Below, in pieces: positions 689-64,000 of a stretch of DNA of 64,000 nucleotides. The notes below the pieces were generated by a model. That model saw only the letters and a program-made list of their open reading frames with translations, ran no database searches and was not told the origin of the DNA. Position 1 is the first letter of the stretch. Every line of letters starts with the position of its first letter. Both the position numbers and the translations under genes were made by a program. The DNA comes from Candidatus Omnitrophota bacterium (lineage in GTDB: Bacteria; Omnitrophota; Gorgyraeia; Pluralincolimonadales; Pluralincolimonadaceae): contig JAQUPL010000001.1 in the NCBI GenBank assembly GCA_028716565.1, positions 409,476 through 473,475 of the forward strand, given 5' to 3'.

Positions 689-695
689 ATTGGAC

Positions 696-3946: not shown

Positions 3947-3948
3947 GT

Positions 3949-4914: not shown

Positions 4915-4940
4915 GAATTTATCTCCTTTTGTAAGACTCT

Positions 4941-4969
4941 ATTATAAGTTATCTGATACGATTTTGCAA
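4941..4969 (-). promoter_or_regulatory. sigma70-like promoter (TTGCAA-17 nt-TATAAT) with downstream Shine-Dalgarno GGAGA for the epimerase gene
   Basis: On the minus strand, TTGCAA (plus-strand 4964-4969) is followed by a 17-nt spacer and TATAAT (plus-strand 4941-4946). GGAGA at 4926-4922 lies 7 nt before the GTG start at 4914. This is the only gap over 50 nt in the window. Confidence 0.45.
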
Positions 4970-4975
4970 TATGCC

Positions 4976-7028: not shown

Positions 7029-7056
7029 TTTCCTTCTCCTTTGTTTGGCATCCTGT

Positions 7057-9752: not shown

Positions 9753-9754
9753 CT

Positions 9755-11350: not shown

Positions 11351-12481
11351 ATGAAGATATTATTTATTGCAGAGCCTTTGACCTCACATACCCAAAAGTG
11401 GCTGCGTTTTTTGGGCGAAGCGGGACATCAAATTTATGTGTTATCTTATCATAACAGGTATGCCAATACAATTAAAAATGTCTCTGAAATAGCCCATTTT
11501 GAGCCCGTCAATAAGAACCCTTTCATTTTCTTAAAATACCTCCTCGAACTTAAAAAGATCGCAAAAAGAATAAAGCCGGATGCGCTGACATGCCACTATG
11601 CCCTTGGAACGCCAGGCTTATTAGCGGCGCTCTCCAGTTTCCATCCCCAAATGATAACTATTTTGGGGGGCATAGACATATACGGCCATAGATCTACGAA
11701 TTGGCTAAGATATTTAATACATAATAAACTAATGGCGAAATTTATCTTCAAAACAAGCGATATGATAATCGTCGGCTGTAAAGACCACAAACAACATTTG
11801 CTTGAAAACGGCGTACCCGGCGAAAAAATAGTCGTTATCATGGGCGATATCGGCTTAGGCGTTGACTTAAAGATGTTCAATAACAGGTACGATACCACAC
11901 AGATAAAAAGAGACCTGGATCTAACGGGTAAATTCGTGGTTTTTTGCCCCAGAAGGCTGGTTGCCTATACCAATGTGGAGCTGCTGGTAAAGTCGATCCC
12001 GTTATTAAAGGACAAAATACCCAATATCGTTTTAATGTTGCATACTTATGTCGCAGACGCCAAATATCTGGACTATATCAAAGAGCTTACCCGTAAGACC
12101 GGGATTGAAAACAATGTGGTCTTCACGGAAGAAAGGGCTTATGAAGAAATGCCCCTTCTTTATTGCGCCTCGGATTGTACCGTATCTATCTCCTCTTTCG
12201 ACGGCACGCCCTCAAGCATAGCAGAATCGATGGCCTGCAGAATCCCGGTAATAGCCTATGATATCACTTCTATCCGCGAATGGATAAAAGACGGCCAAAG
12301 CGGGATACTCATCAAAAAACTGGATCCGGAAGAGCTATCTAATGCCATTCTCAAGATCTATTCCGATAAAAAGGAGACGGAAAAAATCATTGAAAATGCG
12401 GCAAACTTTGTAGAGAAAAATCTGGACATGGAAAAATGCAAAAAAACTCTCCTGGATATATACCAAAAGATAAAGGCCTAA
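11351..12481 (+). CDS. glycosyltransferase family 4 (only plus-strand gene in the window)
   Basis: 376 aa, GT-B GT4-like, with a C-terminal E-x7-E-like region. Confidence 0.6.
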   Translation: MKILFIAEPLTSHTQKWLRFLGEAGHQIYVLSYHNRYANTIKNVSEIAHFEPVNKNPFIFLKYLLELKKIAKRIKPDALTCHYALGTPGLLAALSSFHPQMITILGGIDIYGHRSTNWLRYLIHNKLMAKFIFKTSDMIIVGCKDHKQHLLENGVPGEKIVVIMGDIGLGVDLKMFNNRYDTTQIKRDLDLTGKFVVFCPRRLVAYTNVELLVKSIPLLKDKIPNIVLMLHTYVADAKYLDYIKELTRKTGIENNVVFTEERAYEEMPLLYCASDCTVSISSFDGTPSSIAESMACRIPVIAYDITSIREWIKDGQSGILIKKLDPEELSNAILKIYSDKKETEKIIENAANFVEKNLDMEKCKKTLLDIYQKIKA

Positions 12482-13191
12482 TCCTCGGCAACCGGTTTTT
12501 TCATGAAATACATAAATCTCCTAAGCGGAGATTGGATCGCGCCCCTGCTTAGCCTCCATTTCTGAAAGTTTATAGAATCCAAATTTTTGAAAAATTTTTC
12601 ATAGTTACCGGGGATATCTCTTTTAATGCCGCTGACGGCTTTCCAGTCTCCCCCGGATAAGTCTGAAATGCCGGCTATCTGGCCTTTTTTGTTCACGAAA
12701 TAGACGCCGTTATAGACGTCAAAAACGGCCCACGTACCCCTTAAGTTCACGAACGACAAAGGTTTCCTCCCCTCCCCCGTTTCTGAATATACGTCATAAA
12801 AGAAGGAATTGACGTTTGCGTAGTTACAGAGGGTGGTAAAAACGTCCTGGAACTGGTCGTCGACCGCGTATCCCCTTATAATGATATGCCAGACATGATC
12901 GTCTATTATGGGTAATTCCTTCGGATTGTCCTTTAAGTTTGCGCGTGTCCATTCAAATATCTTCATCGCCTTATCTTCGTCGCTTTTGGCGCCCGAGACT
13001 ATCTTCTTCGCCAGGACCCCATAATTATAATGCCTGTCAAAGAAATCCAGTAATTTAAGATATAAAGGCAGCTTGACGGCATGGACTTTATAATTTACTC
13101 CCTGCAGGGTCGTGACCTCCAGGTTAAGGAGGAGCGCCGTTACGGCCAAAGCGGCGATACAGCCCAGCAACCCGTATCTGTATTTTTTCAT
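12478..13191 (-). CDS. hypothetical exported or membrane-anchored protein (last gene of the long minus-strand unit)
   Basis: N-terminal hydrophobic signal/anchor LLGCIAALAVTALLL; no confident family assignment. Confidence 0.45.
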   Translation of the reverse strand: MKKYRYGLLGCIAALAVTALLLNLEVTTLQGVNYKVHAVKLPLYLKLLDFFDRHYNYGVLAKKIVSGAKSDEDKAMKIFEWTRANLKDNPKELPIIDDHVWHIIIRGYAVDDQFQDVFTTLCNYANVNSFFYDVYSETGEGRKPLSFVNLRGTWAVFDVYNGVYFVNKKGQIAGISDLSGGDWKAVSGIKRDIPGNYEKFFKNLDSINFQKWRLSRGAIQSPLRRFMYFMKKPVAED

Positions 13192-15089
13192 ATCGCGGTA
13201 TCCATGAATTTTTTATGCCACAATTCGAGCATCAAGATCGCCCATAACTGGAATGCGTAATCTTTTTTCCCGGAGGTATGGTCTTCGACCATCCTCTTTA
13301 TCGCGCCGGGTTTAAAATACCCCCTTTTAAGAGAGGGCGCGGAAAGCACCGTGTCGCATAAGAAACCCTTGAGTTCCCCCCTGAACCATTGCCCGACCGG
13401 CATTCCGAACCCCATCTTTCTCCTGCGGATATTCTCTTCCGGAAGCAGCCCTTTGACGGCCTTTCGCAGGATGTATTTCTTTGTGCCCCGCCTGATCTTA
13501 AAATCGGAAGGCAGCTTTGCGGCAAACTCGATGAGTTTATGGTCGAGGAACGGAGACCTCGCTTCGAGGGAGTTAGCCATACTGGCTATATCAACCTTGA
13601 CCAGCAGGTCATCGGGCAGGTACGTCGAGGTATCGGCCAAAAGAAGGCGGTCCAGCAGATCCGGTTTGCCGGGGCGATTTAAGTAAGGTTCCAGGATAGC
13701 TAAAGGACCGGATGAACGGGTCTCTTTTAAAAACTCGTCCGAATACAACTCATCCGGGCGGACCTCCCCCAGGATACCGGCCCACCTTAGGTACCTCTCT
13801 CCCGCCGGCAGCCCCGCGCTGCCTAAAAATCTCTTTAACCGCCTGAGCGTATCTTTTTGATTGACAGAATCGGGAAGGATGCCCGCTAACCCGCTTATCA
13901 TGTTTCTTAAGTATATGGGTAATTTTTGCAGGTTTTCCGAGATCAGCATTGCCTGGTATCTCTCGTACCCTCCGAATGCCTCGTCGCCGCCGTCGCCGTT
14001 CAAGGCTACCGTCACGAATCGCCTTGTCTCCCGGCAGACGTAATAAGTAGGTATACAGGAGGAGTCGGCATAAGGTTCCCCGTACCTTTCTACCAACAAA
14101 GGAAGGATCTCAAGCGCGTTCGGTTTCACGATAAACTCGTGATGTTCCGTCGCGAATTTTCCCGCGACCATCCTTGCGTATTTAAGCTCGTTGTAATCGG
14201 ATTCCTCAAAACCTATTGAAAAAGTCTTTACTTTAGCGCCGGATACCTGGCTCATCAGGCCTACTACCGCGCTTGAGTCGATTCCTCCGCTTAAGAAAGC
14301 CCCCAAAGGCACATCGCTGTATAACCTGATTTTTACCGCTTCTTTGAGCAATCTTAAGACTTCCTCCGAGGCTTCTTCTTCCGAAATATTTATTTTGCCG
14401 GAATAATCAACCTGCCAGTACCGTTCCAGGCGGATATTTCCGTCTTTCAATGTCAAGGTATGCGCCGCCGGAAGCTTAAAGACGCCGTTATAGATCGTGA
14501 ACGGGGCCGGCACATAACCGAAATTCATATAATAATCAACCGCCTTGAGATTTATACTTTTATTGATTAAGCCGCTTGCCAAAATTGATGAAAATTCAGA
14601 CGCAAAACAAAAAATATTCCCCGATCGGCAATAGAGAAGCGGCTTTTTCCCTACCCTGTCTCTCCCCAAAAAAAGGTTTTTCTTTTTTTCATCCCATACC
14701 GCAAATGCAAACATGCCGCGGAGATGCCTTACGCACTCCTCTCCGTAAGTTTCGTAAAGATGTACCATGACCTCGGTGTCTGAATCAGACTTGAATATAT
14801 GCCCTCTCATTTTCAGTTCATCTTTTAGATCTTTGTAATTATATATCTCTCCGTTAAAGACCAGCTGGACCGACCCGTCCTCATTGCTCATTGGCTGGTG
14901 GCCTGCCTGGGACAGATCAATGATGCTTAGTCTCCTATGGCCCAGGGCTACGGAAGGAATCCCGTTGTTCAGATAAATACCCCCGTCATCCGGGCCCCTG
15001 TGCCTCAATTCCCTGCACATATCCTTTATCGTCTTTTCTCCCGCAATACCGCTCCCTATATGATCGACGATCCCGCAAACACCGCACAT
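13188..15089 (-). CDS. asparagine synthase (glutamine-hydrolysing) family amidotransferase (WbpS-like)
   Basis: MCGVCGI N-terminal nucleophile Cys and SGGIDSS PP-loop; 633 aa. Confidence 0.8.
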   Translation of the reverse strand: MCGVCGIVDHIGSGIAGEKTIKDMCRELRHRGPDDGGIYLNNGIPSVALGHRRLSIIDLSQAGHQPMSNEDGSVQLVFNGEIYNYKDLKDELKMRGHIFKSDSDTEVMVHLYETYGEECVRHLRGMFAFAVWDEKKKNLFLGRDRVGKKPLLYCRSGNIFCFASEFSSILASGLINKSINLKAVDYYMNFGYVPAPFTIYNGVFKLPAAHTLTLKDGNIRLERYWQVDYSGKINISEEEASEEVLRLLKEAVKIRLYSDVPLGAFLSGGIDSSAVVGLMSQVSGAKVKTFSIGFEESDYNELKYARMVAGKFATEHHEFIVKPNALEILPLLVERYGEPYADSSCIPTYYVCRETRRFVTVALNGDGGDEAFGGYERYQAMLISENLQKLPIYLRNMISGLAGILPDSVNQKDTLRRLKRFLGSAGLPAGERYLRWAGILGEVRPDELYSDEFLKETRSSGPLAILEPYLNRPGKPDLLDRLLLADTSTYLPDDLLVKVDIASMANSLEARSPFLDHKLIEFAAKLPSDFKIRRGTKKYILRKAVKGLLPEENIRRRKMGFGMPVGQWFRGELKGFLCDTVLSAPSLKRGYFKPGAIKRMVEDHTSGKKDYAFQLWAILMLELWHKKFMDTAI

Positions 15090-16180
15090 TATATTTGACC
15101 CTGCCTGTTTTTCTTATAAGCTTCTTTTAAAACAGCTATAAATTTAGGCGCATTTACCTTAACCGAGTATCTTTCTTCCACCGTCTTTTTCGCTTCAATC
15201 CCCATTCTCTTCCTAAGCCCGGAGTCTTCGATCAATAGGGTGAGTTTTTTTAGCCATTGATCTTCGTCAGAAGCCAAGAAACCGTTAACCCCGTCCGCTA
15301 TTATCTCCTTGTTCATGCCCACCGGAGAGCATACAGAAGGTATTGCCATGCTCATGTACAGGATAGCCTTGAACCCGCATTTTCCTCTTGTCCATTCGTT
15401 ATCCGGCATGGGCATTATCCCTATATCAAACGTCCTCAATTGGCCTAATTCTTCTTCAAGCGACCATGGCACGCAGATCACGCCCGGAATTTTACCGTTA
15501 TCGAGATCCCCTCCGACTATCTTAAATTCGATATTGGGAAAGCGCTCCGATAACTTCGCAAATACGCCCGTCATCGGTTTTAAGAAATCCATCGTTGTGA
15601 CGCTGCCTATCCAGCCAACGACCACTTTTTCCCGGATGTCCCCGGCGGCCGGATAATACTTATCCAGATCGACGGGAGTAGGTATCACGGAAACACACCG
15701 GTTATGGCGCAGCGCAAATTCGGCCAGATAGTCGTTTCCTGCTATCACGTAGTCGCTAAGTTCCACTATCTTGGCTATTTTCTGCGGTTTTTTGTATTTT
15801 TCTATAAAATTATTCTGAGGGCTGGTAAAAGGCAGGAATATTGCGTCATCAAAATCGAATATTACCGGTTTTCTGACAAAACTCACAACCGATTCGAAGA
15901 AACAGCTGCCGAGCGGAAAAGCCTCTCTGTGTACAAAAACGACGTCATACCCCGATAACTGAAATATGTCCAGAAAACGCGAGGCGACCCCTAATAAAAA
16001 AAAGAATACCTTTTTAAAATAGTTCCCCTTTTCATATAAAACCTTAAAGGCGGCGCTACTCCAAAAAGGGTGAAGAGCGGCAGATATGCCTTCCTTTTCT
16101 AAATAAGGGAGGTATTGCTCTATCCTATACCTGTTGCTTGCGCCCTCGTGCGGATACGGGACCCAGAATAATACTTTCAT
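15089..16180 (-). CDS. glycosyltransferase family 4-like
   Basis: EWTRGKCGFKAILYMSMAIPSVCSPVGMNKEII region resembles the GT4 donor-binding motif. Confidence 0.6.
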   Translation of the reverse strand: MKVLFWVPYPHEGASNRYRIEQYLPYLEKEGISAALHPFWSSAAFKVLYEKGNYFKKVFFFLLGVASRFLDIFQLSGYDVVFVHREAFPLGSCFFESVVSFVRKPVIFDFDDAIFLPFTSPQNNFIEKYKKPQKIAKIVELSDYVIAGNDYLAEFALRHNRCVSVIPTPVDLDKYYPAAGDIREKVVVGWIGSVTTMDFLKPMTGVFAKLSERFPNIEFKIVGGDLDNGKIPGVICVPWSLEEELGQLRTFDIGIMPMPDNEWTRGKCGFKAILYMSMAIPSVCSPVGMNKEIIADGVNGFLASDEDQWLKKLTLLIEDSGLRKRMGIEAKKTVEERYSVKVNAPKFIAVLKEAYKKNRQGQI

Positions 16181-16181
16181 C

Positions 16182-17378
16182 TCAGGTCAGCCTTCGGTAG
16201 ATCATGCTGTATTTATCGATCCCCTGCTCAAGCGAAAAATATTCTTTCGCGGAGGAGACACACTTCTTCCTGAGGCCTTCACTTACAGGTAATAATCCCG
16301 ATGCCTTCACTGCGGCTTCTTCGATCCCTCCGGGGCCTGAAAGATCGGCGACCACGCCTACGTTTTCCCTGTTTATCACCTCTTCCGTATCGCCGATGCC
16401 GGAATTGATCACTACCGGCAGGCCGCAGGATAAGCTTTCGGCAAATTTTATGGGGGAGCAGCCCGCCGAGGAGAGCCGGCGCTTATAGAACATTATTGAC
16501 AGGGCCGAGGAGGATAAGGCAAGCGGAATATCCTTGCGGGATAGACCGGTTACCGCAAAATCATGCCTGTCTATGCCGTGTCCCAAAATAACGCCCTCGA
16601 CCTCCCCGGCCGCGGAATTCGTGACCAGCCAGAAATAGGCGCCGCGGATCTTTTCCTTTAAGGCCTTAAAAAAAAGCGCCATCCCATCCAGGTCGTAAAA
16701 CGTCCCGGTGCTTCCTAAATATATTAAAACGGGCCTGTTCATTGCGTCACCGGGCAGGATATCCCCCCGCGGTTTCGGACCAAAGAACCCGGTATCAACG
16801 CAGCACGGGATGACCGTGATCGCGGCCCCGGGGAAATCCTTCTTCAGGGACCTCTCCGCCGACCCGGCCAGGACGACTATCTCATCGCTTCCTTTTATAA
16901 GCATCCTCTCTATCTTCTTGAATAACGCATAGACCGGGCTGCCTTTCTCCCAGGCACCTGCGTCGACTTTTTCGTCCGGCCAAAAACCCCTCATGTCAAA
17001 TATTAATCTTTTCCCGGCCACCCGCTTAAGAAAGAGCCCTATCAGCGCAGGGATATATCCCCTTGCGTGCACGGCCCCGACATCGCCCTTTCGTATACTT
17101 GATAACGCCGAACAAGAACCCTTTATAATGTCATAAACAGTGGCCGGGATCGCGGGTGACCTGTGGTATTTTAACGGTCCCCAGGTTATGCCGTTCTTTT
17201 CCAGCTCCGCCTTGACCTCCTCCCGGCCCTTCCCTGCGCCCATTCTTTCCTTCTTCTCGAAACTGATGACGGAGATGCCGAATCCCCTGTTTGACAATCC
17301 CTTGAGATACGGCAAGACCTGAGATTGGGCTACCGGGTCCATCAGGCCGTCATAAGTGATATACAGGATCTTCTTCAT
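16182..17378 (-). CDS. glycosyltransferase family 4
   Basis: 398 aa, GT-B, Glyco_trans_4 N-domain and GT1-type C-domain. Confidence 0.65.
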   Translation of the reverse strand: MKKILYITYDGLMDPVAQSQVLPYLKGLSNRGFGISVISFEKKERMGAGKGREEVKAELEKNGITWGPLKYHRSPAIPATVYDIIKGSCSALSSIRKGDVGAVHARGYIPALIGLFLKRVAGKRLIFDMRGFWPDEKVDAGAWEKGSPVYALFKKIERMLIKGSDEIVVLAGSAERSLKKDFPGAAITVIPCCVDTGFFGPKPRGDILPGDAMNRPVLIYLGSTGTFYDLDGMALFFKALKEKIRGAYFWLVTNSAAGEVEGVILGHGIDRHDFAVTGLSRKDIPLALSSSALSIMFYKRRLSSAGCSPIKFAESLSCGLPVVINSGIGDTEEVINRENVGVVADLSGPGGIEEAAVKASGLLPVSEGLRKKCVSSAKEYFSLEQGIDKYSMIYRRLT

Positions 17379-18802
17379 GAACCCCGGTTATCTGCCCGTT
17401 GTCTTGTAAGGGCGTACGCCGCAAATATAAAAGCGACGGGTATGAACATGTCTTTATGCCGGAAAGCCGTCCCGATATTGCTTTCGAAAAGAGCGGCAGG
17501 CAGGATAAGCACCAAGAGTAAAGCCGTGAGCGTAAGCGAGGTATACTTATCCTTCTTCAGGAAAAGCAACCATCCCGTTACGGTAAACGGGGCCATTAAA
17601 TACCAATAAATGACCTGCGGATAAAAAGGCAGGAAGCTCAGGCTCCAGTTCCCGAACGGGAACGGTGCAAAGAAAAAATACAAGATCGCTTTTAGGATAG
17701 TCGCAAGGTATCCGAAAGAAAAGACATCTCCGGGCGACAGCTTACCCTGCTGGTAGACCAGATCCGAGTATATCCTGTAATTTGTCTGAGAAGGATGGTA
17801 TGCCCCGCCCGAAACTACCTGGGCAAGGTTAATTCGGGCAATGAAATTAGCGGTATTTACGATCTTTGAGGTTATTGTCGTCCTATCCGCAAATACAAAC
17901 GCTAAGATAAAATATACGGCGAAGATCAAAGATACCCTTAGGATAGTGCTTTTCCCTACCTTAAGCGCTTTTAGAAGGGCGAATACAGAAACCACGCCCA
18001 ATCCTGCCAACAATGATATTGATAACTTAGTCCTGAAGAGGTTCGATAGATATATAAAAAGCAGGGCCCAGAATATATATTTAAACTTCTTTTCCGTGAT
18101 CAGCTTGACAAGGAATAATAAATAAGCCAAAAGCAAAAAATTACTGACGCTGTCGCGCAAGCCGGTGACAGACCAGTAGAAAATAGACGGGAAGAACGCA
18201 AAAATTACGGCGGCGATACGCGAGGGCTTCTCCTCTCCAAAGAGCCGGCGGGAGATCAAATACACAAGAATAATGCTTAAGCAGCAAATAAGGCTGTTGG
18301 TCATTTTAGCCGCGACCGGCGCATAACCGAGCCACGCATAAAAAACGCCCAACCCAAAAACATTACTGTCGAATTGGTATCCCCCGAGGTCGGGCAGCCG
18401 GTTGTCATGGAAGTACCGCGTCTTATCAAGCATCCTGTCCAAGAACGGGTCCCTGGCCCTGGCAAGGTTTTCTTCCGCGGGATTATCCTTCAACAAATGA
18501 GAGATATAAAAGGCGTTAACATTGTAGACTGCGGCGTCAGGCTGGGTATCTCCTCCCCAGAAAGGAGGCTCGAGGCCTACATTATAATTGACCAGGCACA
18601 TTGCCGCCCTGAGGATAAAACTTATGATGAAAAGTTTTATCAGGAAACTTGAGGATTCTTTTTTAAAAAATAGTTTTATTGCGAGCAGGGACGCCAAAAA
18701 AAGGGACAGGACGAATAAACCGGCGGTATAGAACGTCAAAATAAAGCCGAGGACGATCCCCAGTAAAATATATGAGAATACCGCTATTTTATTCAAGATC
18801 AT
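17375..18802 (-). CDS. polytopic membrane protein, GT-C (ArnT/PMT, GT39/83)-like or Wzy-like
   Basis: At least 10 TM segments. YLISRRLFGEEKPSRIAAVIFAFFPSIFYWS resembles the ArnT/PMT loop region. Confidence 0.4.
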   Translation of the reverse strand: MILNKIAVFSYILLGIVLGFILTFYTAGLFVLSLFLASLLAIKLFFKKESSSFLIKLFIISFILRAAMCLVNYNVGLEPPFWGGDTQPDAAVYNVNAFYISHLLKDNPAEENLARARDPFLDRMLDKTRYFHDNRLPDLGGYQFDSNVFGLGVFYAWLGYAPVAAKMTNSLICCLSIILVYLISRRLFGEEKPSRIAAVIFAFFPSIFYWSVTGLRDSVSNFLLLAYLLFLVKLITEKKFKYIFWALLFIYLSNLFRTKLSISLLAGLGVVSVFALLKALKVGKSTILRVSLIFAVYFILAFVFADRTTITSKIVNTANFIARINLAQVVSGGAYHPSQTNYRIYSDLVYQQGKLSPGDVFSFGYLATILKAILYFFFAPFPFGNWSLSFLPFYPQVIYWYLMAPFTVTGWLLFLKKDKYTSLTLTALLLVLILPAALFESNIGTAFRHKDMFIPVAFIFAAYALTRQRADNRGS

Positions 18803-22436: not shown

Positions 22437-22440
22437 CTGT

Positions 22441-25292: not shown

Positions 25293-25293
25293 T

Positions 25294-28366: not shown

Positions 28367-28367
28367 A

Positions 28368-31005: not shown

Positions 31006-31011
31006 TAAATA

Positions 31012-34145: not shown

Positions 34146-34155
34146 GGGCTCCTCG

Positions 34156-36461: not shown

Positions 36462-36471
36462 TTCCGGTATC

Positions 36472-38078: not shown

Positions 38079-38088
38079 GGTATCCCGC

Positions 38089-41445: not shown

Positions 41446-41464
41446 ATCCCCTCTGCGTTAAATA

Positions 41465-45824: not shown

Positions 45825-45830
45825 TTCCCG

Positions 45831-48837: not shown

Positions 48838-48844
48838 ATGTTTC

Positions 48845-49807: not shown

Positions 49808-49808
49808 G

Positions 49809-51502: not shown

Positions 51503-51504
51503 CC

Positions 51505-56019: not shown

Positions 56020-56041
56020 TTTTCACTCCCGTGTTTGCATG

Positions 56042-57154: not shown

Positions 57155-57171
57155 TTTAAATCCTCTCCCGT

Positions 57172-57945: not shown

Positions 57946-58528
57946 GCATCTTTAACCCGTGGAGCTGGCTCTTCTCCGGATGGAATTGTGTCGCGTATAT
58001 GTTTCCGCGGTTAAGTACGGCGGCGAACCGGTTTCCATATTCGCATTCTCCGATGACATCATCCGGATTGGCGCACCGGATATGATAACTGTGCACATAA
58101 TAAAAAAGTGCGTCCTGCGGGATCCCGTCGAAAAGCATGTTCGCCTTCCGCTGGATAAGGCCGTTCCACCCGACATGGGGGATCCGGACGCCCGGCGCAT
58201 CTATCTTTACCACCGACGCATCGATCCATCCGAGGCCTTTATGGTGGCCGAATTCAAAACTCTCTTTTGCCATCAGTTGCGACCCCAGGCATATACCAAG
58301 GACGGGTTTATGTTCCCTAAGGACCATCCTGTCAAGCGCATCTGCGAGCCCCAACCGGCGCAGGTTCCCGATGCCGTCCCCGAACGCGCCGACTCCGGGT
58401 ATTATGATCTTTTCGCACTTTTCCAGCCCGGCGGGATCGGCGGTGATAAGAGGCTCATAATTCAGTTTCCTGACCGCGCCTGCGACCGAACGGAGGTTGC
58501 CCAGGCCGTAATCGACGATGGCTATCAT
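57911..58528 (-). CDS. HisH-like class I glutamine amidotransferase (WbuY/HisH2-like)
   Basis: MIAIVDYGLGNLRSV N-terminus and catalytic GICLGSQLM. Start at 58528 forms an ATGA overlap with the upstream stop. Confidence 0.75.
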   Translation of the reverse strand: MIAIVDYGLGNLRSVAGAVRKLNYEPLITADPAGLEKCEKIIIPGVGAFGDGIGNLRRLGLADALDRMVLREHKPVLGICLGSQLMAKESFEFGHHKGLGWIDASVVKIDAPGVRIPHVGWNGLIQRKANMLFDGIPQDALFYYVHSYHIRCANPDDVIGECEYGNRFAAVLNRGNIYATQFHPEKSQLHGLKMLENFLAGARHA

Positions 58529-60213
58529 CGGGGACCTGCCGGAGGCACGGTCTCGACATTGAAGACCTTGACCCATTCGTTGAAGACATGCTTCCTGTAT
58601 TCGCTCCTGTCATACTTGCCGTTCTTTCCCCATCCGAACCAGCGGTTCACCGGCGCGCTGAAACCCCTTTTATCGACACGCGCTGCTATTTCGGCCGGGA
58701 TGAACTTCTTCGCTACCCTCTTCAGTATCCATTTGGTGACACCATCCTTGATCTTATACTTGGACGGCATGCTGAATGCGAACTGGATAAGCCGGTAGTC
58801 CAAAAACGGCGCGCGGTTCTCGACATGAAAAGCCATGTTGATCCTGTCGGCGAACTGCAGGAGCTCTTGCATGCTCGTATAGAAATCCGCGAGCCCCATG
58901 GCGTGGATATGGTCGTTATTTATCCTCCCGAAGAAATCCCCTATCGTCTCCTCAAGGTACTTCACGACTTCCTGGTTATATTTGTTCTCACAGCGGTTCA
59001 CGATCCTGGCGTACCTCTCCACCGTGGAACCGTAATAACGGTCTATGAGGTAAGAATACTGTCTGAGGGCCTCCAGCTGCTTTATGCTCTCATCGTGGTT
59101 CAAAAGGTGGTAGCGGTGATACCCGGAAAATATCTCATCCGCCCCGTCCCCGGAAAGGACGACCTTTATATCCCTGCTGGCGCGCTCAAGGAGCATCCAG
59201 AGGCTGAAGCTGGTCCAGGTGCACGGCGTATCAAGATGGTATACGATCTTTCGGTTCGTTCGGCGGAAATCCTCCTGCGTGGGCCTGACCACCACCAGCC
59301 TCTTCTTGATCTTTTTCGCGACAAGCTGGGCATAATGCAATTCGTCATAGTCCTTGGCTATGGGATAATGGCACGTGTAGATGTAATCCGGCTTGGCAAT
59401 GCAGGCGATCAGCGCGCTGTCCACGCCGCCGCTCACGAATGTCCCGAAACGGTGCACGCAATTCTTCGTCCTCAAAAGTATGGAATCGACAAGAAGGTCT
59501 GTCAACCGCGACTCTATCTTCTTAAGGTCATCCGGCATCTCCGTCAGGTTGTCCCATATCTTCCAATATGAGTGTTTCGTCACGTTAAGCGCCCTGTCGA
59601 TCTTCAGGTAGTCGCCAGGCATCAAGCAGTAGATGTCTTTGAACAGGGTCTTCTCGCCGGTGTTGAACTCGAACGCCTCATACGAAAGGCACTCGCGGTT
59701 GTAGATGGGCTTCACCAGTTTAAGCAGCGCTTTGATCTCGCTCGCAAAAGCGAAAAAATCACCGCTGCGTACATAATACAACGGTTTTTCTCCCGCCCTG
59801 TCCCGGACGATATACATCTCTTTATCCCGGCCGTCATAGATAGCGAACGCATACATACCGTTATAATCACGGAACGAAGAAGTTTTTTGTTTCAGGTAAT
59901 GGCAAAGCACAGTCTCCGCATCCGATTGGGTCTTGAACTCATACTCTCCGCGGTATGAACGCCGTATATCTTCGTGGTTATAGATCTCGCCGTTATATAC
60001 GATGACAGCCGAGCCGTCCGGCGCCTCATAGGGTATATCGTGCCTTTCCTTGTCGATGATGCTCAGCCTCACCATCCCCAGCGCCAGGCCCTTACGGGAA
60101 TAGATCCCGGACTGGTCCGGGCCGCGGTGGCTGATCTCCTTCAGCATATCATGCACGATCTGCCGCGGGTCATGTTCGGGGTTGTTCGATATGTAGCCGG
60201 CTATTCCGCACAT
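58525..60213 (-). CDS. asparagine synthase (glutamine-hydrolysing) family amidotransferase, second copy
   Basis: MCGIAGY nucleophile Cys and SGGVDSA PP-loop. Confidence 0.8.
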   Translation of the reverse strand: MCGIAGYISNNPEHDPRQIVHDMLKEISHRGPDQSGIYSRKGLALGMVRLSIIDKERHDIPYEAPDGSAVIVYNGEIYNHEDIRRSYRGEYEFKTQSDAETVLCHYLKQKTSSFRDYNGMYAFAIYDGRDKEMYIVRDRAGEKPLYYVRSGDFFAFASEIKALLKLVKPIYNRECLSYEAFEFNTGEKTLFKDIYCLMPGDYLKIDRALNVTKHSYWKIWDNLTEMPDDLKKIESRLTDLLVDSILLRTKNCVHRFGTFVSGGVDSALIACIAKPDYIYTCHYPIAKDYDELHYAQLVAKKIKKRLVVVRPTQEDFRRTNRKIVYHLDTPCTWTSFSLWMLLERASRDIKVVLSGDGADEIFSGYHRYHLLNHDESIKQLEALRQYSYLIDRYYGSTVERYARIVNRCENKYNQEVVKYLEETIGDFFGRINNDHIHAMGLADFYTSMQELLQFADRINMAFHVENRAPFLDYRLIQFAFSMPSKYKIKDGVTKWILKRVAKKFIPAEIAARVDKRGFSAPVNRWFGWGKNGKYDRSEYRKHVFNEWVKVFNVETVPPAGPR

Positions 60214-60216
60214 AGT

Positions 60217-61566
60217 CTATTTTGAAAGGTCCAGCGACCCGTCTCCCACCTGGTGGTAACGTATGGGATCCCCAAAACGGAGGTGTTCCCATATCCCGTA
60301 ATTATCGATGATCAGCTTCACTTTCTTTTTGGCATTCCTCACCTTTTGCGGGGCTATGCATTTGTACTGGTTGTGGTCGGAGGCGACCACCACGACATCC
60401 GCGGAGAATACCTTGGACGGGAACGATCTCACCGTGACGCCTTTTATGTACCTGCGTATCTCATCCCCGGTGCAGTACGGGTCGCATATGGAGACCTTCA
60501 ACCCGTTTTTTATGAGATAGTCCGCCAACGTAACCGATGGGGAAAGGGTCAGGTCTTTCTGGTTGCCTTTATAAGTTATGCCCAGTATCTCCACGCTCTT
60601 ATAACCGTGCCGGATGATATAGTCCGCATAACTGAGCACTGACGAAATGCCTATATCCTGGAACTCCTTAAGCAGGGTAAGGTTCCCCGGCTTGTCGCTG
60701 CCTTCTATGAGATAGTCTGTCGAGAACGTCATCTTTTCCCCGCCGGTGCCGATGTTCAATTCGCAATCGGCGAGCGAGATATTGCCGAAAAGGGCTTTCG
60801 ACATCTTCTTCATATTCACGAACGGATACCCCATCGCGAGCTGGCGCAGGAAATCTATGGCCATCGCCTGGATGACGTTCATGGAATTTGCGTAGATCTC
60901 GGCATCTTTTATGCTGTCGAGCATTATTACGGGCAGGCCGAGATGTTCAAGGAGCCTGCGTATCGCCTCCGAACCCTTCGGGCAGCACCCCGCAACGGGC
61001 ATCTTGTCCTTTTTACCGATAAATGCCTCCACGCTCCAGTCTGTCCGGAAAAAGACCCCCACATGATAATCCTTTGATACAGTTATCCTCTCCTTACGGA
61101 GCTTGTCTATGAAGTTCTTCTGGATGTTCCCGGGGATGAAAGCCGATTCGAATATCACCAGGGGGACCGTACCGCTCTTTTTTATATTGCGGGCGAAGAT
61201 CACCGCCATCCTGGACGCAATGGTGTCCTTCCCCGTGTTCTTGCGGCTCTCCGGCATCGCGATGATATGCAGGCGGGAATCTTTGAACATCTCCTCCGCG
61301 CTCTTCGCCACCTGGATGGACGGATAATCCAGTTTCGGCAGGAACCCGTTAAGCGACCAGGTCGCCTTTTGGTTGTTGTCGGGATACCTGCCCCCCGTGA
61401 AGGCCTTAAGCTGCCCGGCATTCAGGTCATAGACCTTGACCTTGAACCCGCTCGTCTGCAGCTTGAATATCGTGGTGTATCCCAGATAGCCAAGGCCCCA
61501 GACGGAAACCGTCTTGTTCTTCATGATATTTTCGAATATCATCTTACCCTCCGCTCTTAAGGACAT
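60217..61566 (-). CDS. UDP-glucose/GDP-mannose dehydrogenase-family homolog, divergent in catalytic region
   Basis: VWGLGYLGYTT NAD motif and C-terminal ILGITYKGNQKDLTLSP UDP-binding motif. The expected GGHCxPxD region reads GTGGEKMTFSTD. Probable start MIFENIM at about 61542. Confidence 0.55.
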   Translation of the reverse strand: MSLRAEGKMIFENIMKNKTVSVWGLGYLGYTTIFKLQTSGFKVKVYDLNAGQLKAFTGGRYPDNNQKATWSLNGFLPKLDYPSIQVAKSAEEMFKDSRLHIIAMPESRKNTGKDTIASRMAVIFARNIKKSGTVPLVIFESAFIPGNIQKNFIDKLRKERITVSKDYHVGVFFRTDWSVEAFIGKKDKMPVAGCCPKGSEAIRRLLEHLGLPVIMLDSIKDAEIYANSMNVIQAMAIDFLRQLAMGYPFVNMKKMSKALFGNISLADCELNIGTGGEKMTFSTDYLIEGSDKPGNLTLLKEFQDIGISSVLSYADYIIRHGYKSVEILGITYKGNQKDLTLSPSVTLADYLIKNGLKVSICDPYCTGDEIRRYIKGVTVRSFPSKVFSADVVVVASDHNQYKCIAPQKVRNAKKKVKLIIDNYGIWEHLRFGDPIRYHQVGDGSLDLSK

Positions 61567-62755
61567 CGTTAATGGTCTCGATCACGTAATCAACGTCCGG
61601 ATCAGACATTCCGGGATACATAGGTATGGATACTATCTCCTCGTAAGCGCGGTCCGCCGCGGGAAAGTCCGAATGGATGAGATCCTTATAGAAAGGATGC
61701 TTATGCAGCGGGATAAAATGCACGCTCGTGCCGATATTGCGCGCCCTGAGCTGCTTAATGAATTCGTCCCTGGGGATGATATCCTTGCCGATGCGCATGG
61801 TAAAGAGGTGGTAAATGTGGTAGTGTTCCGGCTTGTCCTCGGAAAAACGGGCGCGCGGATCAAGGCCGGCCCGGTAGAGCGATGCGATGCGCCTCCGCCT
61901 CTCGTTCATCCGGTCCAGTTTTTTAAACTGCTCAAGGCCTATGGCGGCATGGATGCTGTCCATGTTATATTTATAGCCGATCTCCTCTATCTCGTAGAAC
62001 CAATTGCCTTTTTGGGAATAACGGTTGAAGGCTTCCTTGTTGATGCCAAAATAACTTAATTTCCGCATCTTCTCTATCATTTTCTTGTCCCGGGAAACCG
62101 CCATGCCCCCTTCGCCGCATGCCAGGTTCTTGGTAGCGTAGAAACTGAAGACGGAGACATCCCCGAAGCTGCCGATCTTCCTGCCTTTATATTGCGTGCC
62201 GATGGCGTGCGCGGCATCCTCTATGACCGTCAGGCCATGCTCTTTGGCCGCGGAAAGTATCGCATCCATCTCGCACGGATAGCCCGCAAAATGGACCGGC
62301 ATGATTGCCTTGGTCCGCGGATTGATAAGGGACTTCATCTTTTCGACGTCGATATTAAGGGATGACTCATAGACATCGCATAATACGGGTGTTGCTCCGG
62401 TCCATAAGACCACGTGGCCCGTAGCGGCAAATGTCCATGTCGGGACTATCACCTCATCCCCTTTACCGATACCGCAGGCCAATAAGGCCAGGTAGAGGCC
62501 CGCCGTGCAGGAATTCAGGGCTACGGCATTGGCCTGGCCTCCGAGATATCCCGTCACGGCATTTTCAAATTCCGTCACACGCGGCCCGGTAGTCAAATAC
62601 CCGCTCCGGATGACTTCGGCCACCGCCTCGATCTCTTCGGTCCCCATAAACGGCTTTGCCAGCGGCAAAAATTCATTACGCATTTTGTACGGTCTCCCCT
62701 GTTCCCTGGTTGCCGATCTCCGGATACCAGGAATCGCATCCTTTACACACTTCAT
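61544..62755 (-). CDS. DegT/DnrJ/EryC1/StrS-family PLP-dependent sugar aminotransferase, second copy
   Basis: DAAHAIGT...VFSFYATKNLACGEGG. Probable start MRNEFLPLAKP at about 62683. Confidence 0.8.
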   Translation of the reverse strand: MKCVKDAIPGIRRSATREQGRPYKMRNEFLPLAKPFMGTEEIEAVAEVIRSGYLTTGPRVTEFENAVTGYLGGQANAVALNSCTAGLYLALLACGIGKGDEVIVPTWTFAATGHVVLWTGATPVLCDVYESSLNIDVEKMKSLINPRTKAIMPVHFAGYPCEMDAILSAAKEHGLTVIEDAAHAIGTQYKGRKIGSFGDVSVFSFYATKNLACGEGGMAVSRDKKMIEKMRKLSYFGINKEAFNRYSQKGNWFYEIEEIGYKYNMDSIHAAIGLEQFKKLDRMNERRRRIASLYRAGLDPRARFSEDKPEHYHIYHLFTMRIGKDIIPRDEFIKQLRARNIGTSVHFIPLHKHPFYKDLIHSDFPAADRAYEEIVSIPMYPGMSDPDVDYVIETINDVLKSGG

Positions 62756-63542
62756 CGATCAATTCCATCGTTTCGTGCTGCCTCCGCAGGTCCTTATAAG
62801 ACCGGCAATTCCATATCGCTTTGATGGGCGAGGTATTGGCGTCCCCCAGCGGCGAACTGTTCCAATCGTGGTTGCATCTTCCCACTTTACCGTCAAAAAA
62901 TATAAGCATCTCATAGAACGGCATCACGCACCCCACACGCCCGCTCCTCTTCACGCCAAGGGAGCCGAACGTGCCGTTACGGGAATGTTCCTCATATATA
63001 CGTATGCGGTCTACCTTGCCATTCCATATGTTTTTGAAGATCTCCGCGTTCCGGGGCGGCGTCTCCGGTGTTTTTACCATTGAGACCTGGGTTTTAACGC
63101 GGCCTTTATTCATTTTTAAGAACTGCAGTATTGCGGCCTCGACCTTGTCGTATTTCGCCGGCGCGCGCGTCTTGTTGTATACTTCCGGGATATCGAGGCT
63201 GAATGAGATAAAATTTATCGCCTCGATGACCGCCTTTGACTTCGGCCCGTCTAAGAGCGTCGCGTTGGTCGCCATCTGGACTTCCTTGAATTTACCCTTC
63301 ACATACCCGCATATCTCGATGAAATCCGGGTGCAACAAGCTCTCCCCGCGCCTGTGGAGCACGAGGATCGTATCCGGATACGCTGATATCTCATCGATCA
63401 GCCTTTTAAAGAATGAGAGGTCCATGAAACCGCGGAGGTCGTCCACGTACCTGCGCGGGCAATAGGAGCAGCGCAGGTTGCACGAAGCCGCCAACTCGAT
63501 CTCTATCCTCCGGGGGAAATCCCCCGCATCATATTTCTTCAT
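62676..63542 (-). CDS. radical SAM protein with C-terminal Cys-rich SPASM/twitch-like extension
   Basis: ASCNLRCSYC (CxxxCxxC) and additional Cys clusters CVMPF...RCNHDW and CKGCDSW. Confidence 0.65.
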   Translation of the reverse strand: MKKYDAGDFPRRIEIELAASCNLRCSYCPRRYVDDLRGFMDLSFFKRLIDEISAYPDTILVLHRRGESLLHPDFIEICGYVKGKFKEVQMATNATLLDGPKSKAVIEAINFISFSLDIPEVYNKTRAPAKYDKVEAAILQFLKMNKGRVKTQVSMVKTPETPPRNAEIFKNIWNGKVDRIRIYEEHSRNGTFGSLGVKRSGRVGCVMPFYEMLIFFDGKVGRCNHDWNSSPLGDANTSPIKAIWNCRSYKDLRRQHETMELIDEVCKGCDSWYPEIGNQGTGETVQNA

Positions 63543-64000
63543 GCCATAAGCCCGATCGTTTTGTTCCTTACGGTTTCCAGCACCTCTTTTGAAGTGAAGG
63601 CGAGCGGGTCGACCAATTCGCTCACGATAGCGTTAGCCCTTTTCAGGTCGCCGGGTTGGTCGATAGTCAACCTTATCCCATGCAAAAATTCCGGGTTGAG
63701 CCCGGCGTCGATGAATTTTGCCGAAAATTCCTGCGGATGCGACGTTATGTATTTTGTCACGTGCTCCAGGTCTTCTTTTTCCCTGGTCCTCATCGCCGCC
63801 TTCTCCAGGGCTTCCGCGGTTACCGCCTCCGAATAGAAACCGGACGCGCATGTGCTGCGCTCCAATGAAGCATAATCCAGTTTTTCTGCGATGAGCGCCT
63901 TCAGCAGCGTATTGACTAAAGCGGTATCCACGAAAGGGGTATCCGCGCACACGCGGACGACGTATCCGGCGTTCACCGATCCGGCTGCCCGTATGTACCT
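63539..64000 (-). CDS. CTP_transf_3 cytidylyltransferase-like, C-terminal part only (N-terminus beyond window)
   Basis: RLTIDQPGDLKRANAIV resembles the conserved SpsF/NeuA C-terminal block. The reading frame stays open to the window edge. Confidence 0.4.
   Translation of the reverse strand, partial: RYIRAAGSVNAGYVVRVCADTPFVDTALVNTLLKALIAEKLDYASLERSTCASGFYSEAVTAEALEKAAMRTREKEDLEHVTKYITSHPQEFSAKFIDAGLNPEFLHGIRLTIDQPGDLKRANAIVSELVDPLAFTSKEVLETVRNKTIGLMA

Follow-up and report, generated by a model that had tools for sequence, protein, structure and literature searches.

Does a polysaccharide locus that packs dozens of genes onto one strand form a single transcription unit? The question is raised by the 64,000-nucleotide stretch analysed here (the window), in which an earlier note described a gapless, co-directional and translationally coupled series of glycan-biosynthesis genes on the minus strand, running from the right edge down to 12478. 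The minus-strand tiling was borne out, since all ORFs of at least 100 aa required for coverage of 12478-64000 lie on this strand. They make up 48 complete genes and one truncated gene, and independent gene calls on near-identical public contigs (99.9-100% identity) yield the same gene set. The glycan-biosynthesis nature of the block was likewise confirmed, every product with a family match being glycan-related. ORF 63539-63976, considered as a 145-aa gene of its own, was rejected, as it is a fragment of an 866-aa gene.

The junctions agree with the description of the block as nearly gapless, the widest gap being 22 nt. Overlaps account for 26 of the 48 junctions (17 of 4 nt, 5 of 8 nt, 2 of 1 nt and one each of 19 and 29 nt), and all 17 overlaps of 4 nt are of the NTGA type; the other junctions have gaps of 0-10 nt (18 of 48) or 11-22 nt (4 of 48). 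Intergenic DNA thus amounts to 150 of 53,662 nt (0.28%). Start/stop overlaps of this kind are typical of translational coupling, as had been proposed, and the frequency of those of 4 and 8 nt implies it. Both ATGA overlaps previously singled out, at 58528-58525 and 23898-23895, are present in the sequence. At the latter junction gene callers preferred to start at the ATG at 23913, so that the genes overlap by 19 nt; the junction is gap-free with either start. The further statement, that internal promoters or terminators would find essentially no room in the block, cannot be deduced from the missing intergenic space, because promoters and terminators can lie within coding sequence.

The continuation past 64000 that the earlier note anticipated was found in near-identical Omnitrophota MAG contigs, which carry 17 further co-directional genes upstream of the window. 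The co-directional run in fact exceeds the window at both ends and spans at least 91 kb overall. This run is not one unit. It comprises at least a conserved promoter upstream of the window (hereafter the head promoter), a gene in opposite orientation (11351-12481) and a promoter-like site in 4915-4975. From the MarR-like gene behind the head promoter to 12478, the proposed unit counts 66 genes in 68,959 bp, and the block in the window is best read as its distal 51.5 kb, about three quarters of the whole. Over the 66 genes, 33 of 65 junctions overlap, the median spacing is -1 nt and only three gaps exceed 25 nt (91, 43 and 30 nt), all upstream of the window; untranslated RNA amounts to 356 nt in 69 kb. 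The sense strand is G-rich and C-poor, and C-rich, G-poor 80-nt windows number 5 on it against 243 on the antisense strand. GC content falls to 0.42-0.50 in the distal part, 12478..31005, from 0.49-0.55 elsewhere in the unit. The gene content is as follows, in the order of the proposed transcription after a line for the block as a whole.

12478..64000, minus strand: block of 48 complete genes and one truncated gene, defined by ORF tiling, independent gene calls and junction statistics.
64001-81518 (window-equivalent), minus strand: continuation with 17 co-directional genes in near-identical MAG contigs, among them a legionaminic-acid module (LegB, LegC, nucleotidyltransferase, NeuD/PglD-type acetyltransferase, NeuB, NeuC-type epimerase, CMP-transferase).
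63539..64000, minus strand: 3' 461 nt of the 866-aa gene, which runs off the window end; C-terminal CMP-sugar cytidylyltransferase domain (CTP_transf_3).
52167..63542, minus strand: second nonulosonic-acid module (Pfam, NCBIfam), with a SPASM radical-SAM enzyme, PseC-like aminotransferase, NDP-sugar dehydrogenase, AsnB-type amidotransferase, HisH/WbuZ-like amidination pair, 370-aa protein without family match, methyltransferase, NeuB-like synthase, PseG-like hydrolase and GNAT.
41465..52170, minus strand: tailoring and activation genes, namely PIG-L deacetylase, formyltransferase, CMP-transferase, GFO/IDH oxidoreductase, DegT aminotransferase, GNAT and amidase.
39619..41445, minus strand: MsbA/PglK-like ABC exporter (below equivalog cut-offs).
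38089..39626, minus strand: HpcH/HpaI-type aldolase, then KdsB-type 3-deoxy-ulosonate cytidylyltransferase.
31012..38078, minus strand: tailoring genes, namely methyltransferase, hexapeptide acyltransferase, 271-aa unknown, B12-radical-SAM enzyme, 2-hydroxyacid dehydrogenase, epimerase, cyclase and HAD hydrolase.
12478..31005, minus strand: assembly end of the unit, with a 575-aa unknown, RmlD-like reductase, two GT2, three GT4, epimerase, two methyltransferases, two B12-radical-SAM enzymes, two PMT_2 (ArnT-like) membrane transferases, AsnB-type amidotransferase and transglutaminase-like protein.

Judged by NCBIfam scores, the upstream module holds the gene set of the legionaminic acid pathway: LegB (491 bits, cut-off 475), LegC (465, cut-off 420), NeuD/PglB family (221, cut-off 161), NeuC (392, cut-off 236) and NeuB (501, cut-off 400), with a CMP-transferase that is only PseF-like (139 bits, below the cut-off of 206). 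The module inside the window resembles a Pse-type pathway, with no equivalog-level member: none of the PseC, PseH, PseG, PseI and PseF equivalogs reaches its NCBIfam cut-off in 46385-63542 (PseG 109 bits vs 154, PseC 212 and 367 vs 424, PseI 224 vs 340). As most matches fall below equivalog cut-offs, the names given for 52167..63542 express resemblance only. The KdsB-type cytidylyltransferase lies above its NCBIfam subfamily cut-off (308 bits vs 255), and the ABC exporter is probably a lipid-linked glycan flippase. Three proteins encoded in 41465..52170 (377, 383 and 620 aa) have no Pfam match. B12-radical-SAM enzymes number six across the region, and a Maf/MptE-like protein is also found among the cargo.

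The earlier note had suggested inspecting the sequence beyond 64000 for the first promoter. A probable promoter is present 17.5 kb further on, and a NusG paralog of the UpxY family follows it. The elements of this head are given in L022 positions (window coordinate = 90822 - L022 position).

L022 9304-9356: promoter/leader element E1, 5' of the MarR-like gene.
L022 9386-9997: MarR-like regulator, first gene after the head promoter.
L022 10001-10510: UpxY-family NusG paralog, second gene after the head promoter.
L022 10549-10566: conserved hairpin E2, within the 91-nt gap after the UpxY-like gene.

The head promoter, TTGACA-17-TAAACT, lies together with a palindromic leader in the 125-nt gap before the MarR-like gene, the largest gap of the region, and is the best sigma70-like match of a consensus scan over 20 kb. 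A palindrome, CGTTC-N7-GAACG, falls within the predicted initial transcribed region; it may be no more than an operator bound by the MarR-like protein. Hairpins are found in both conserved non-coding elements, E1 and E2. The 60-nt core of the head promoter is invariant in six loci with diverged flanks, and conservation of the element covers nine related loci, three further metagenome contigs included. Each locus has exactly one copy of the head promoter element, always directly 5' of the MarR-UpxY pair, and no copy was found in the window with up to 3 mismatches allowed. A search of the 20.5-kb head region for the 12-nt ops element GGCGGTAGnnTG, with up to 1 mismatch allowed, found none. Co-directional glycan genes also reach at least 9.4 kb upstream of the head promoter, so that read-in from further upstream is possible.

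The paralog scores as UpxY, and not as housekeeping NusG, RfaH or LoaP. It reaches 105.4 bits against NCBIfam NF033644 (UpxY), a small margin over the cut-off of 100, and remains below the cut-offs for housekeeping NusG TIGR00922 (68.4 vs 135.7), RfaH (74.4 vs 144.5) and LoaP (73.9 vs 125); NCBI names it UpxY family antiterminator. Its predicted architecture is that of a two-domain NusG protein with NGN and KOW: Pfam matches NusG/NGN at residues 7-100, the family profile aligns positions 4-168 to E. coli NusG with the KOW domain included, and an AF2 model (pLDDT 85, pTM 0.78) displays a beta-stranded C-terminal domain and has NusG and RfaH as best Foldseek matches. The gene lies outside the secE-nusG-rplK context, and glycan genes follow it in all loci seen. 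No upxZ is found directly downstream, where the next gene is LegB or another cargo enzyme with no small ORF between. The MarR-like regulator consists of a winged-helix part fused to a Rossmann-like domain. The action of UpxY, RfaH and LoaP on long operons is established (PMC11685472, PMC12691694, PMC7593976), and family membership suggests that the paralog may exert antitermination activity on this unit.

Relatives keep the promoter, the MarR-like gene and the UpxY-like gene, followed by cargo that differs or is rearranged. Cargo gene order is not conserved among them, the head alone being conserved, and the cargo is always co-directional and tightly packed. A constant head with variable yet co-directional cargo is as expected if the cassettes depend on read-through from the head. 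Mosaic cargo and lower distal GC also mean that acquired modules could carry their own promoters.

At the distal end the following features were found.

12438..12470, minus strand: terminator-like hairpin UCUUUUGG-UAUAUAU-CCAGGAGA, then G-U7.
11351..12481, plus strand: GT4 glycosyltransferase, the sole plus-strand gene, GC about 0.40-0.43.
1..11260, minus strand: glycan genes after the inverted gene, namely B12-radical-SAM enzyme, methyltransferase, GT1-DUF218 protein, DUF4330 protein, GT4, epimerase, WbaP/WecA-type initiating transferase, Wzy_C (O-antigen ligase/polymerase family) protein and a GT9 heptosyltransferase that runs off the window start.

The last gene of the block stops with TAG at 12480-12478, and the hairpin-U7, which starts 8 nt later, lies inside the 3' end of the convergent gene, whose stop codon overlaps that of the block by 4 nt. 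At about -8 kcal/mol the stem is weak, and the region's z-score does not reach significance; we regard the hairpin as the place where the unit may end. Two gaps in 1..11260, one of 61 nt (4915-4975, containing TTGCAA-17-TATAAT) and one of 28 nt, suggest separate promoters.

Consensus scans inside the block returned promoter-like and terminator-like sites at about the shuffled expectation, a level which is evidence neither for nor against internal signals. Between 40001 and 60000 the count of sigma70-like sites was somewhat higher, 27 where 18.5 +/- 4.3 were expected, and most of them lay on the sense strand. One site lies at a gene junction.

31038-31011, minus strand: candidate internal promoter TTGTCT-16-TATAAT from the consensus scan, individually not statistically significant.

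This site is located in the 3' end of the HAD gene and stops 5 nt short of the ATG that opens the 575-aa gene; the latter has no Shine-Dalgarno sequence. The E. coli ops consensus, GGCGGTAGATTG, is matched exactly at 31075-31064 on the sense strand, also inside the 3' end of the HAD gene; mid-unit ops matches are no more numerous than chance predicts.

We lean, with modest confidence, towards one very long glycan transcription unit that starts at the head promoter, relies on UpxY-like processivity and ends at the hairpin-U7. The finding of a head promoter and of a UpxY-family paralog makes a unit of this length more plausible. Transcription would most likely begin about 17.5 kb past the window end, at the conserved sigma70-type promoter. 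By analogy with UpxY, RfaH and LoaP, the paralog would board RNA polymerase in the leader and confer resistance to pausing and to Rho and intrinsic termination, and the modified polymerase would then read through the 64 genes downstream of the MarR-UpxY pair. The scarcity of untranslated RNA, the 4- and 8-nt overlaps and the G-rich, C-poor sense strand would reduce Rho access and link expression of the genes. The products would be CMP-activated legionaminic-acid-like and pseudaminic-acid-like sugars and a Kdo-like ulosonic acid, decorated by amidination, formylation, acetylation and B12-radical-SAM and SAM methylation, transferred by GT2, GT4 and ArnT-like enzymes and then exported, probably to an LPS-type or capsule-type surface glycan. 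The unit would stop at the hairpin-U7 after the last stop codon, opposite one convergent gene. Gene content, packing, the conserved promoter and leader, the NusG paralog with its family assignment and the mosaic nature of the cargo are direct observations; from them we infer that the head promoter is the main promoter, that the paralog acts on the unit and that transcription covers its full length. A more specific scenario, which we put forward only tentatively, holds that the 68,959 bp are one 66-gene mRNA made possible by an Omnitrophota branch of UpxY-like proteins, with recruitment through E1 or E2, a MarR-like partner replacing UpxZ, and promoter-less cassettes. The MarR-like regulator would then possibly sense nucleotide sugars, and exchangeable cassettes would be expressed only if inserted co-directionally behind the head. 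To our knowledge, a 66-gene mRNA would be the largest bacterial operon described by gene count.

The most serious competitor, less probable in our view although well within reach, is a compact supercluster of several overlapping units whose promoters, and perhaps weak terminators, lie in coding sequence. Its packing would result from streamlining and cassette insertion, and the UpxY-like factor would serve the first module or modules only. The swapping of cargo modules between relatives, the lower GC of the distal genes, sense-strand promoter-like sites at or above random expectation and the TATAAT-bearing site just before the 575-aa gene all fit such an arrangement, as does the fact that experimentally mapped operons are usually far shorter. 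The largest mapped operon of Leptospira interrogans, for instance, measures 17 kb, and no operon there has more than 19 genes (PMC5243855). However, no internal site is conserved or statistically supported, and the sole demonstrably conserved promoter motif is restricted to the head. Inserted modules moreover all keep their orientation and near-zero spacing, and it is difficult to see why the head should encode a dedicated antiterminator for a few dependent genes only.

Two other explanations deserve less credit. The arrangement might be a by-product of genome-wide leading-strand bias and high coding density in a small Omnitrophota genome, with no operon-level meaning. GC skew is of one sign over the whole window, consistent with one replichore strand, and a related Omnitrophota chromosome is just 1.43 Mb. 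Additionally, co-directional runs of 20 kb are frequent in the nonulosonic-acid clusters of other phyla, so that only the total length and the packing are exceptional here. We nevertheless consider this unlikely, as strand bias yields neither 26 start/stop overlaps in 48 junctions nor such scarce intergenic DNA, and the all-glycan coherence and the conserved regulator/antiterminator head favour selection on co-expression. A chance origin of a same-strand run of 66-74 genes is very improbable even with 90% of neighbours sharing a strand (0.9^65, about 1e-3, the 90% being an illustrative value not taken from this genome). Least probable of all, to the point of being barely credible, is an assembly artefact in which similar glycan loci of different strains were joined into a chimera. 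Two NCBI MAG contigs do stop inside the block, at about 29745 and 33232, and several short-read contigs stop near 29.0-29.1 kb. Yet overlapping independent assemblies tile the whole stretch at 99.9-100% identity and support the colinearity of the block. The single spot where the two MAG contigs break is bridged by a 2,061-bp contig covering 31164-29104, with the 575-aa ORF intact across it, and ORFs are unbroken through every join.

If the locus is one long unit, it belongs to a known kind of system, the polysaccharide operon headed by a NusG paralog; what is new is the phylum, the partner gene and the exceptional size. The Bacteroides PSA-PSH operons (upxY/upxZ) come closest, with a locus-specific NusG paralog, assigned to this NCBIfam family as well, at the 5' end of its presumed target operon, long, co-directional and tightly packed cargo that varies between strains, and a conserved leader before the cargo. 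They differ from the present locus in their host phylum (Bacteroidota instead of Omnitrophota) and in their upxZ, which is missing here; the paralog is instead preceded by a MarR-like regulator whose C-terminal domain is Rossmann-like. E1 and E2 seem unrelated to published descriptions of Bacteroides opsX, and a search of this locus for an invertible promoter like those of Bacteroides capsular operons found none. Bacteroides CPS operons hold roughly 11-22 genes, a size that the 66 genes and 69 kb found here exceed.

The RfaH/ops systems of Proteobacteria also associate a NusG paralog with long surface-glycan operons, in which RfaH suppresses polarity, and RfaH-controlled loci have LPS-type genes comparable to the Wzy_C/WaaL-family protein, GT9 heptosyltransferase, WbaP/WecA-type initiator and MsbA-like exporter found here. 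The gene for RfaH, however, lies at another place in the genome, and the protein acts in trans by way of the 12-nt ops, whereas here the paralog is at the locus and the head lacks an ops match; the exact match lies in a mid-unit gene, where it may be due to chance, and not in an operon leader. In Bacillus velezensis, LoaP is likewise a specialised NusG paralog adjoining very long biosynthetic operons (dfn and mln, for polyketides). A small leader hairpin is essential for antitermination in LoaP-type systems, and E1 and E2 contain conserved hairpins. LoaP operons consist of few very large PKS genes instead of 66 small ones, and LoaP, below whose cut-off our protein scores, binds RNA and antagonises NusA at defined terminators. 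The cargo recalls nonulosonic-acid islands of the type of the Campylobacter flagellin glycosylation locus, with several NeuB-type synthases and CMP-transferases, LegB, LegC, NeuC and PglD-type proteins, a HisH/HisF-like amidination pair, a Maf/MptE-like protein and many methyl-, acetyl- and formyl-transferases. Unlike these islands, the locus is strictly one-directional and gapless, carries a regulator/antiterminator head and is joined to LPS-type assembly genes and six B12-radical-SAM enzymes.

Should one promoter and one NusG paralog indeed drive 66 genes over 69 kb, the locus would set a practical upper bound on bacterial operon size and offer a natural test case for how antitermination, coupling and mRNA composition jointly prevent polarity; if internal promoters exist, it is simply an unusually compact glycan supercluster. 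UpxY-type regulation would reach past Bacteroidota into Omnitrophota, where its partner protein differs and the conserved leader elements are new. With a conserved head and swappable cargo, this uncultured nanobacterial lineage would have an architecture by which to diversify its surface glycans. Unusual nonulosonic-acid tailoring chemistry is also well represented in the cluster, which combines the B12-radical-SAM enzymes with predicted amidination and formylation and with several family-less proteins.

An earlier note described 12478-64000 as a gapless, co-directional and translationally coupled block of some 51.5 kb, holding about 48 glycan genes and reaching beyond the window. Our ORF listing, gene calls made independently on public contigs that match the window at 99.9-100% identity, and the junction statistics all agree with the near-gapless minus-strand arrangement, and both ATGA overlaps quoted in that note are present in the sequence. 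Minus-strand ORFs tile the interval without a break and correspond to 48 complete genes plus the 3' 461 nt of a gene for an 866-aa protein that crosses the window end; an ORF at 63539-63976 (145 aa) was rejected as a gene of its own, being a fragment of the latter. Neighbouring genes overlap at 26 of the 48 junctions, by 4 nt in 17 cases (all NTGA), by 8 nt in five and by 1 nt in two, the two largest overlaps being of 19 and 29 nt. The remaining junctions are gaps of 0-10 nt (18) or 11-22 nt (4), and intergenic DNA amounts to 150 nt out of 53,662 nt. In a set of 74 gene starts compiled from the window and the upstream walk, ATG is used by 68 genes, and a Shine-Dalgarno-like motif of at least four nt stands before 61% of the starts versus 34% of random internal positions. 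The start codon assigned by the MAG gene caller to the KdsB-like cytidylyltransferase (38854-38856) reads ATC in the window, where this gene must begin instead at GTG 38874, overlapping its neighbour by 4 nt, or at an ATG further downstream.

The NCBI MAGs GCA_028714115.1 and GCA_028711645.1 contain contigs nearly identical to the window, and short-read contigs of run SRR22315506 are 100% identical to it, runs SRR22315506-09 representing the same population; NCBI labels the proteins Candidatus Omnitrophica/Omnitrophota. Our literature search found no paper mentioning the assembly or run accessions, and none linking Omnitrophota with NusG. The long run of genes could in principle stem from misassembly, as the MAG contigs break at ~29.7 and ~33.2 kb, but a 2-kb contig bridges this only weak point at 100% identity; we consider misassembly very improbable and rejected it on this ground. 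Two contigs from NCBI MAGs, as well as two assembled from short reads, end near ~29000-29750 and ~33232; this may reflect heterogeneity among strains or a shift in coverage where the tailoring part of the cluster meets its assembly part.

As the earlier note anticipated, the block continues past 64000, near-identical contigs carrying 17 further co-directional genes upstream. These include a legionaminic-acid module, in which LegB, LegC, the NeuD/PglD-type protein, NeuC and NeuB score above NCBIfam cut-offs, and are headed by two regulators, a MarR-like protein followed by a NusG paralog. From the MarR-like start down to window position 12478, 66 genes occupy 68,959 bp with 356 nt of intergenic DNA, and the only gaps above 25 nt (91, 43 and 30 nt) all lie upstream of the window. 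Co-directional glycan genes run on for at least 9.4 kb upstream of the regulator pair. The walk, which covered window-equivalent 90,822 (upstream) to window position 1 (downstream), reveals a one-strand region of more than 91 kb with one inverted gene. A homologue search with a 43-aa C-terminal fragment of the upstream epimerase gave no match.

Elements of the head, on the near-identical contig L022 (window coordinate = 90822 - L022 position)
L022 9304-9356, co-directional with the block: E1, putative promoter and leader element
L022 9386-9997 (window-equivalent 81436-80825), co-directional: MarR-like regulator
L022 10549-10566 (window-equivalent ~80256-80273), co-directional: E2, hairpin element after the UpxY-like gene, also found in the relatives' loci L019, L025, L027 and L035

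The MarR-like protein (203 aa) combines a winged helix (HTH_24/MarR_2) with a Rossmann-like C-terminal domain and scores 68.6 bits on TIGR04176 ('EPS-associated MarR'), under the cut-off of 88. Its C-terminal domain carries the precomputed Pfam assignment C2185-like_N, with weak matches to the N-terminal region of NeuD and to a C-methyltransferase C-terminal domain, and may sense a nucleotide sugar or cofactor. The NusG paralog (169 aa) possesses NGN and KOW domains according to its family profile and AlphaFold model. On the UpxY family model it reaches 105.4 bits (cut-off 100), compared with only 68 bits (cut-off 136) for the model of housekeeping NusG.

The sequence beyond 64000, where the earlier note suggested looking for the first promoter, holds a conserved candidate with a leader at the head. 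The widest gap of the region (125 nt) precedes the MarR-like gene. It harbours TTGACA-17-TAAACT, the top-scoring sigma70-like site in 20 kb, directly followed by ATCGTTCATnnTTAGAACGTT, which includes the palindrome CGTTC-N7-GAACG. Six loci encoding UpxY-like proteins of 73-100% identity were aligned: ~60 nt, reaching from a T-rich stretch to the end of the palindrome, are essentially invariant, and the flanks are unalignable. The E1 motif occurs exactly once in each locus holding the MarR-like/UpxY-like pair, always just 5' of the pair, and a scan of JGI metagenomes added three copies, each lying ahead of a MarR-like and a UpxY-like gene. E1 might act as an operator, an ops-like site or a 5' stabiliser. 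E2 consists of the hairpin AGTTACAGGnATGTAACC followed by AAGGGGCGAAGCTCTGTCC; preceded by an A-rich tract, it falls within the 91 nt that separate the UpxY-like gene from the first cargo gene. It is kept in most relatives whatever cargo follows, is missing in two, and may act as a site of recruitment, pausing or processing, or as an attenuator. Neither element has a match within the window at up to 3 mismatches, and the idea that copies within the block serve as internal promoters or sites of recruitment was consequently rejected. Rfam searches were negative for the head region (E-value up to 1) and, at gathering thresholds, for the window, so E1 and E2 are not known RNA families. The RfaH ops element is absent from the head and leader, and no inverted repeats were found to enclose the promoter, which is therefore not seen to be invertible in the Bacteroides style.

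The anatomy of the locus and the conservation of its head are direct observations; the cargo behind the head varies. In the locus whose UpxY-like protein is 91% identical, genes homologous to those at window 64171-58537 (42-62% identity) come directly after E2, and the ~16-kb legionaminic module is missing. Another relative shares this module at 80-94% identity and diverges after it, and further relatives have other cargo, with sulfate-activation and ABC-import genes among it. Variation also affects the genes immediately upstream of the promoter, two relatives lacking six genes present here. Gene order is not conserved and consequently cannot serve as operon evidence. In every relative examined the cargo is co-directional and tightly packed, a pattern that fits promoter-less cassettes depending on transcription from the conserved head.

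A polysaccharide operon headed by a NusG paralog is the best-supported model. Transcription would fire at E1, and the MarR-like protein probably autoregulates via the palindrome overlapping the start region. The UpxY-like factor would load in the leader and make RNA polymerase processive through the cargo. Translational coupling and protection of the RNA from Rho would come in addition, owing to the near-absence of untranslated RNA and the many start/stop overlaps. On the G-rich sense strand, 80-nt windows that are C-rich and G-poor, the composition preferred by Rho, number 5, versus 243 on the antisense strand. The activity of the factor, the roles of E1 and E2 and, above all, the continuity of transcription over 69 kb are inferences. 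It is somewhat probable that the block is mainly transcribed from E1 with UpxY-like assistance; the strict version, a single mRNA, is doubtful.

The main rival is a compact supercluster with extra promoters inside coding sequence, a real but lesser possibility. Consensus scans for sigma70-like promoters and intrinsic terminators gave counts near shuffled expectation, which neither support nor exclude internal signals.

Promoter-like and terminator-like sequences, observed versus shuffled expectation
1-20000: promoter-like 27 vs 27.3; terminator-like 33 vs 26.1
20001-40000: promoter-like 30 vs 21.6; terminator-like 17 vs 22.8
40001-60000: promoter-like 27 vs 18.5; terminator-like 24 vs 22.3

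One such site, TTGTCT-16-TATAAT at 31038-31011, has its -10 overlapping the stop codon of a HAD-hydrolase gene and stops 5 nt short of the ATG with which the gene for the 575-aa protein begins. The E. coli RfaH ops consensus GGCGGTAGATTG is matched exactly ~25 nt upstream, at 31075-31064 on the sense (minus) strand, in the 3' end of the HAD-hydrolase gene; as ~0.1 exact matches per window are expected by chance, this match is not significant and may be coincidental. Co-directional packing could also reflect a genome-wide strand bias or streamlining alone, which we regard as unlikely.

At the low end of the proposed operon, a hairpin followed by G-U7 starts 8 nt past the TAG of the last block gene, within a convergent gene, and is a plausible, weak terminator. 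This convergent GT4 gene (11351-12481, plus strand) overlaps the block by 4 nt at the stop codons, and any read-through would transcribe it antisense. It is the only plus-strand gene in the 64 kb, has a low GC (~0.40), is separated from the next minus-strand gene by an AT-rich divergent region of 90 nt (11261-11350), and looks like a later insertion or inversion. Farther down, the 61-nt gap 4915-4975 upstream of the epimerase gene (3949-4914) holds a near-consensus TTGCAA-17-TATAAT at 4969-4941, minus strand, which likely gives the LPS-type genes in this part of the window a promoter of their own.

The mechanism proposed here is established for UpxY, RfaH and LoaP. UpxY is assigned to Bacteroidetes in the reviewed literature (PMC12691694), and in Bacteroides its recruitment occurs at pause sites of the leader that have pause hairpins (PMC11685472). 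RfaH antiterminates via ops (PMC7593976), LoaP acts through a hairpin in the leader RNA and as an antagonist of NusA (PMC12691694), and the transcriptome-defined operon map of Leptospira interrogans reaches a maximum of 19 genes and 17 kb (PMC5243855). The Omnitrophota protein classifies as UpxY under the NCBI family criterion, and the locus resembles Bacteroides upxY-headed CPS operons in its proposed working. Unlike these, it belongs to the phylum Omnitrophota, lacks upxZ and an invertible promoter, has a MarR-like partner preceding the NusG paralog, and bears other conserved leader elements. The proposed unit has about three times the length of typical CPS operons; for transcription specialists, its size is striking and its principle expected. 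As the organism is uncultured, tests rest on metatranscriptomes or heterologous reconstruction.

All products with a family match are glycan-related, and a tRNA search found none.

Gene content of the window
63542 to ~46385, minus: SPASM radical-SAM enzyme, PseC-like aminotransferase, NDP-sugar dehydrogenase, AsnB-type amidotransferase, HisH/WbuZ-like amidination pair, NeuB-like synthase, PseG-like hydrolase, GNATs, PIG-L deacetylase, formyltransferase, CMP-transferase
~46385 to ~31012, minus: amidase, MsbA/PglK-like ABC exporter, HpcH-type aldolase adjoining a KdsB-type cytidylyltransferase (the latter above its subfamily cut-off), further tailoring enzymes
31005-12478, minus: assembly end, with two GT2 and three GT4 transferases, two ArnT-like PMT_2 proteins, two B12-radical-SAM enzymes, methyltransferases, another AsnB-type enzyme
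Below the block, minus: nine glycan genes, from a B12-radical-SAM enzyme through a WbaP/WecA-type initiating transferase and a Wzy_C-family protein
Window start, minus: GT9 heptosyltransferase, cut by the window edge

The stretch from 63542 to ~46385 looks like a second, diverged nonulosonic-acid pathway, most of its products scoring under NCBIfam equivalog cut-offs. Judging from its LPS-type genes, the cluster may make an LPS-like or capsule-like product. GC per gene drops gradually in the distal glycosyltransferase part, and no sharp mosaic boundaries were seen. Six B12-binding (class B) radical-SAM enzymes are found in this one glycan region besides the SPASM radical-SAM enzyme at 62676-63542, which suggests unusual C-methylation or other radical chemistry on sugars. 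Six cluster proteins have no Pfam match at E <= 0.001.

B12-radical-SAM enzymes (L015, a second near-identical contig)
9755-11260, minus
21045-22436, minus
22441-23913, minus
34156-35649, minus
L015 15817-17262
L022 6862-8358

Proteins with no Pfam match
29278-31005, minus: 575 aa
35646-36461, minus: 271 aa
41465-43327, minus: 620 aa
44673-45824, minus: 383 aa
47704-48837, minus: 377 aa
56042-57154, minus: 370 aa

The N-terminal ~630 residues of the 866-aa protein (window 63539-64000; L015 17259-19859) have no family match, and its last ~230 residues match a CMP-sugar cytidylyltransferase; in the relative L025, the homologous cytidylyltransferase is a separate 211-aa protein.
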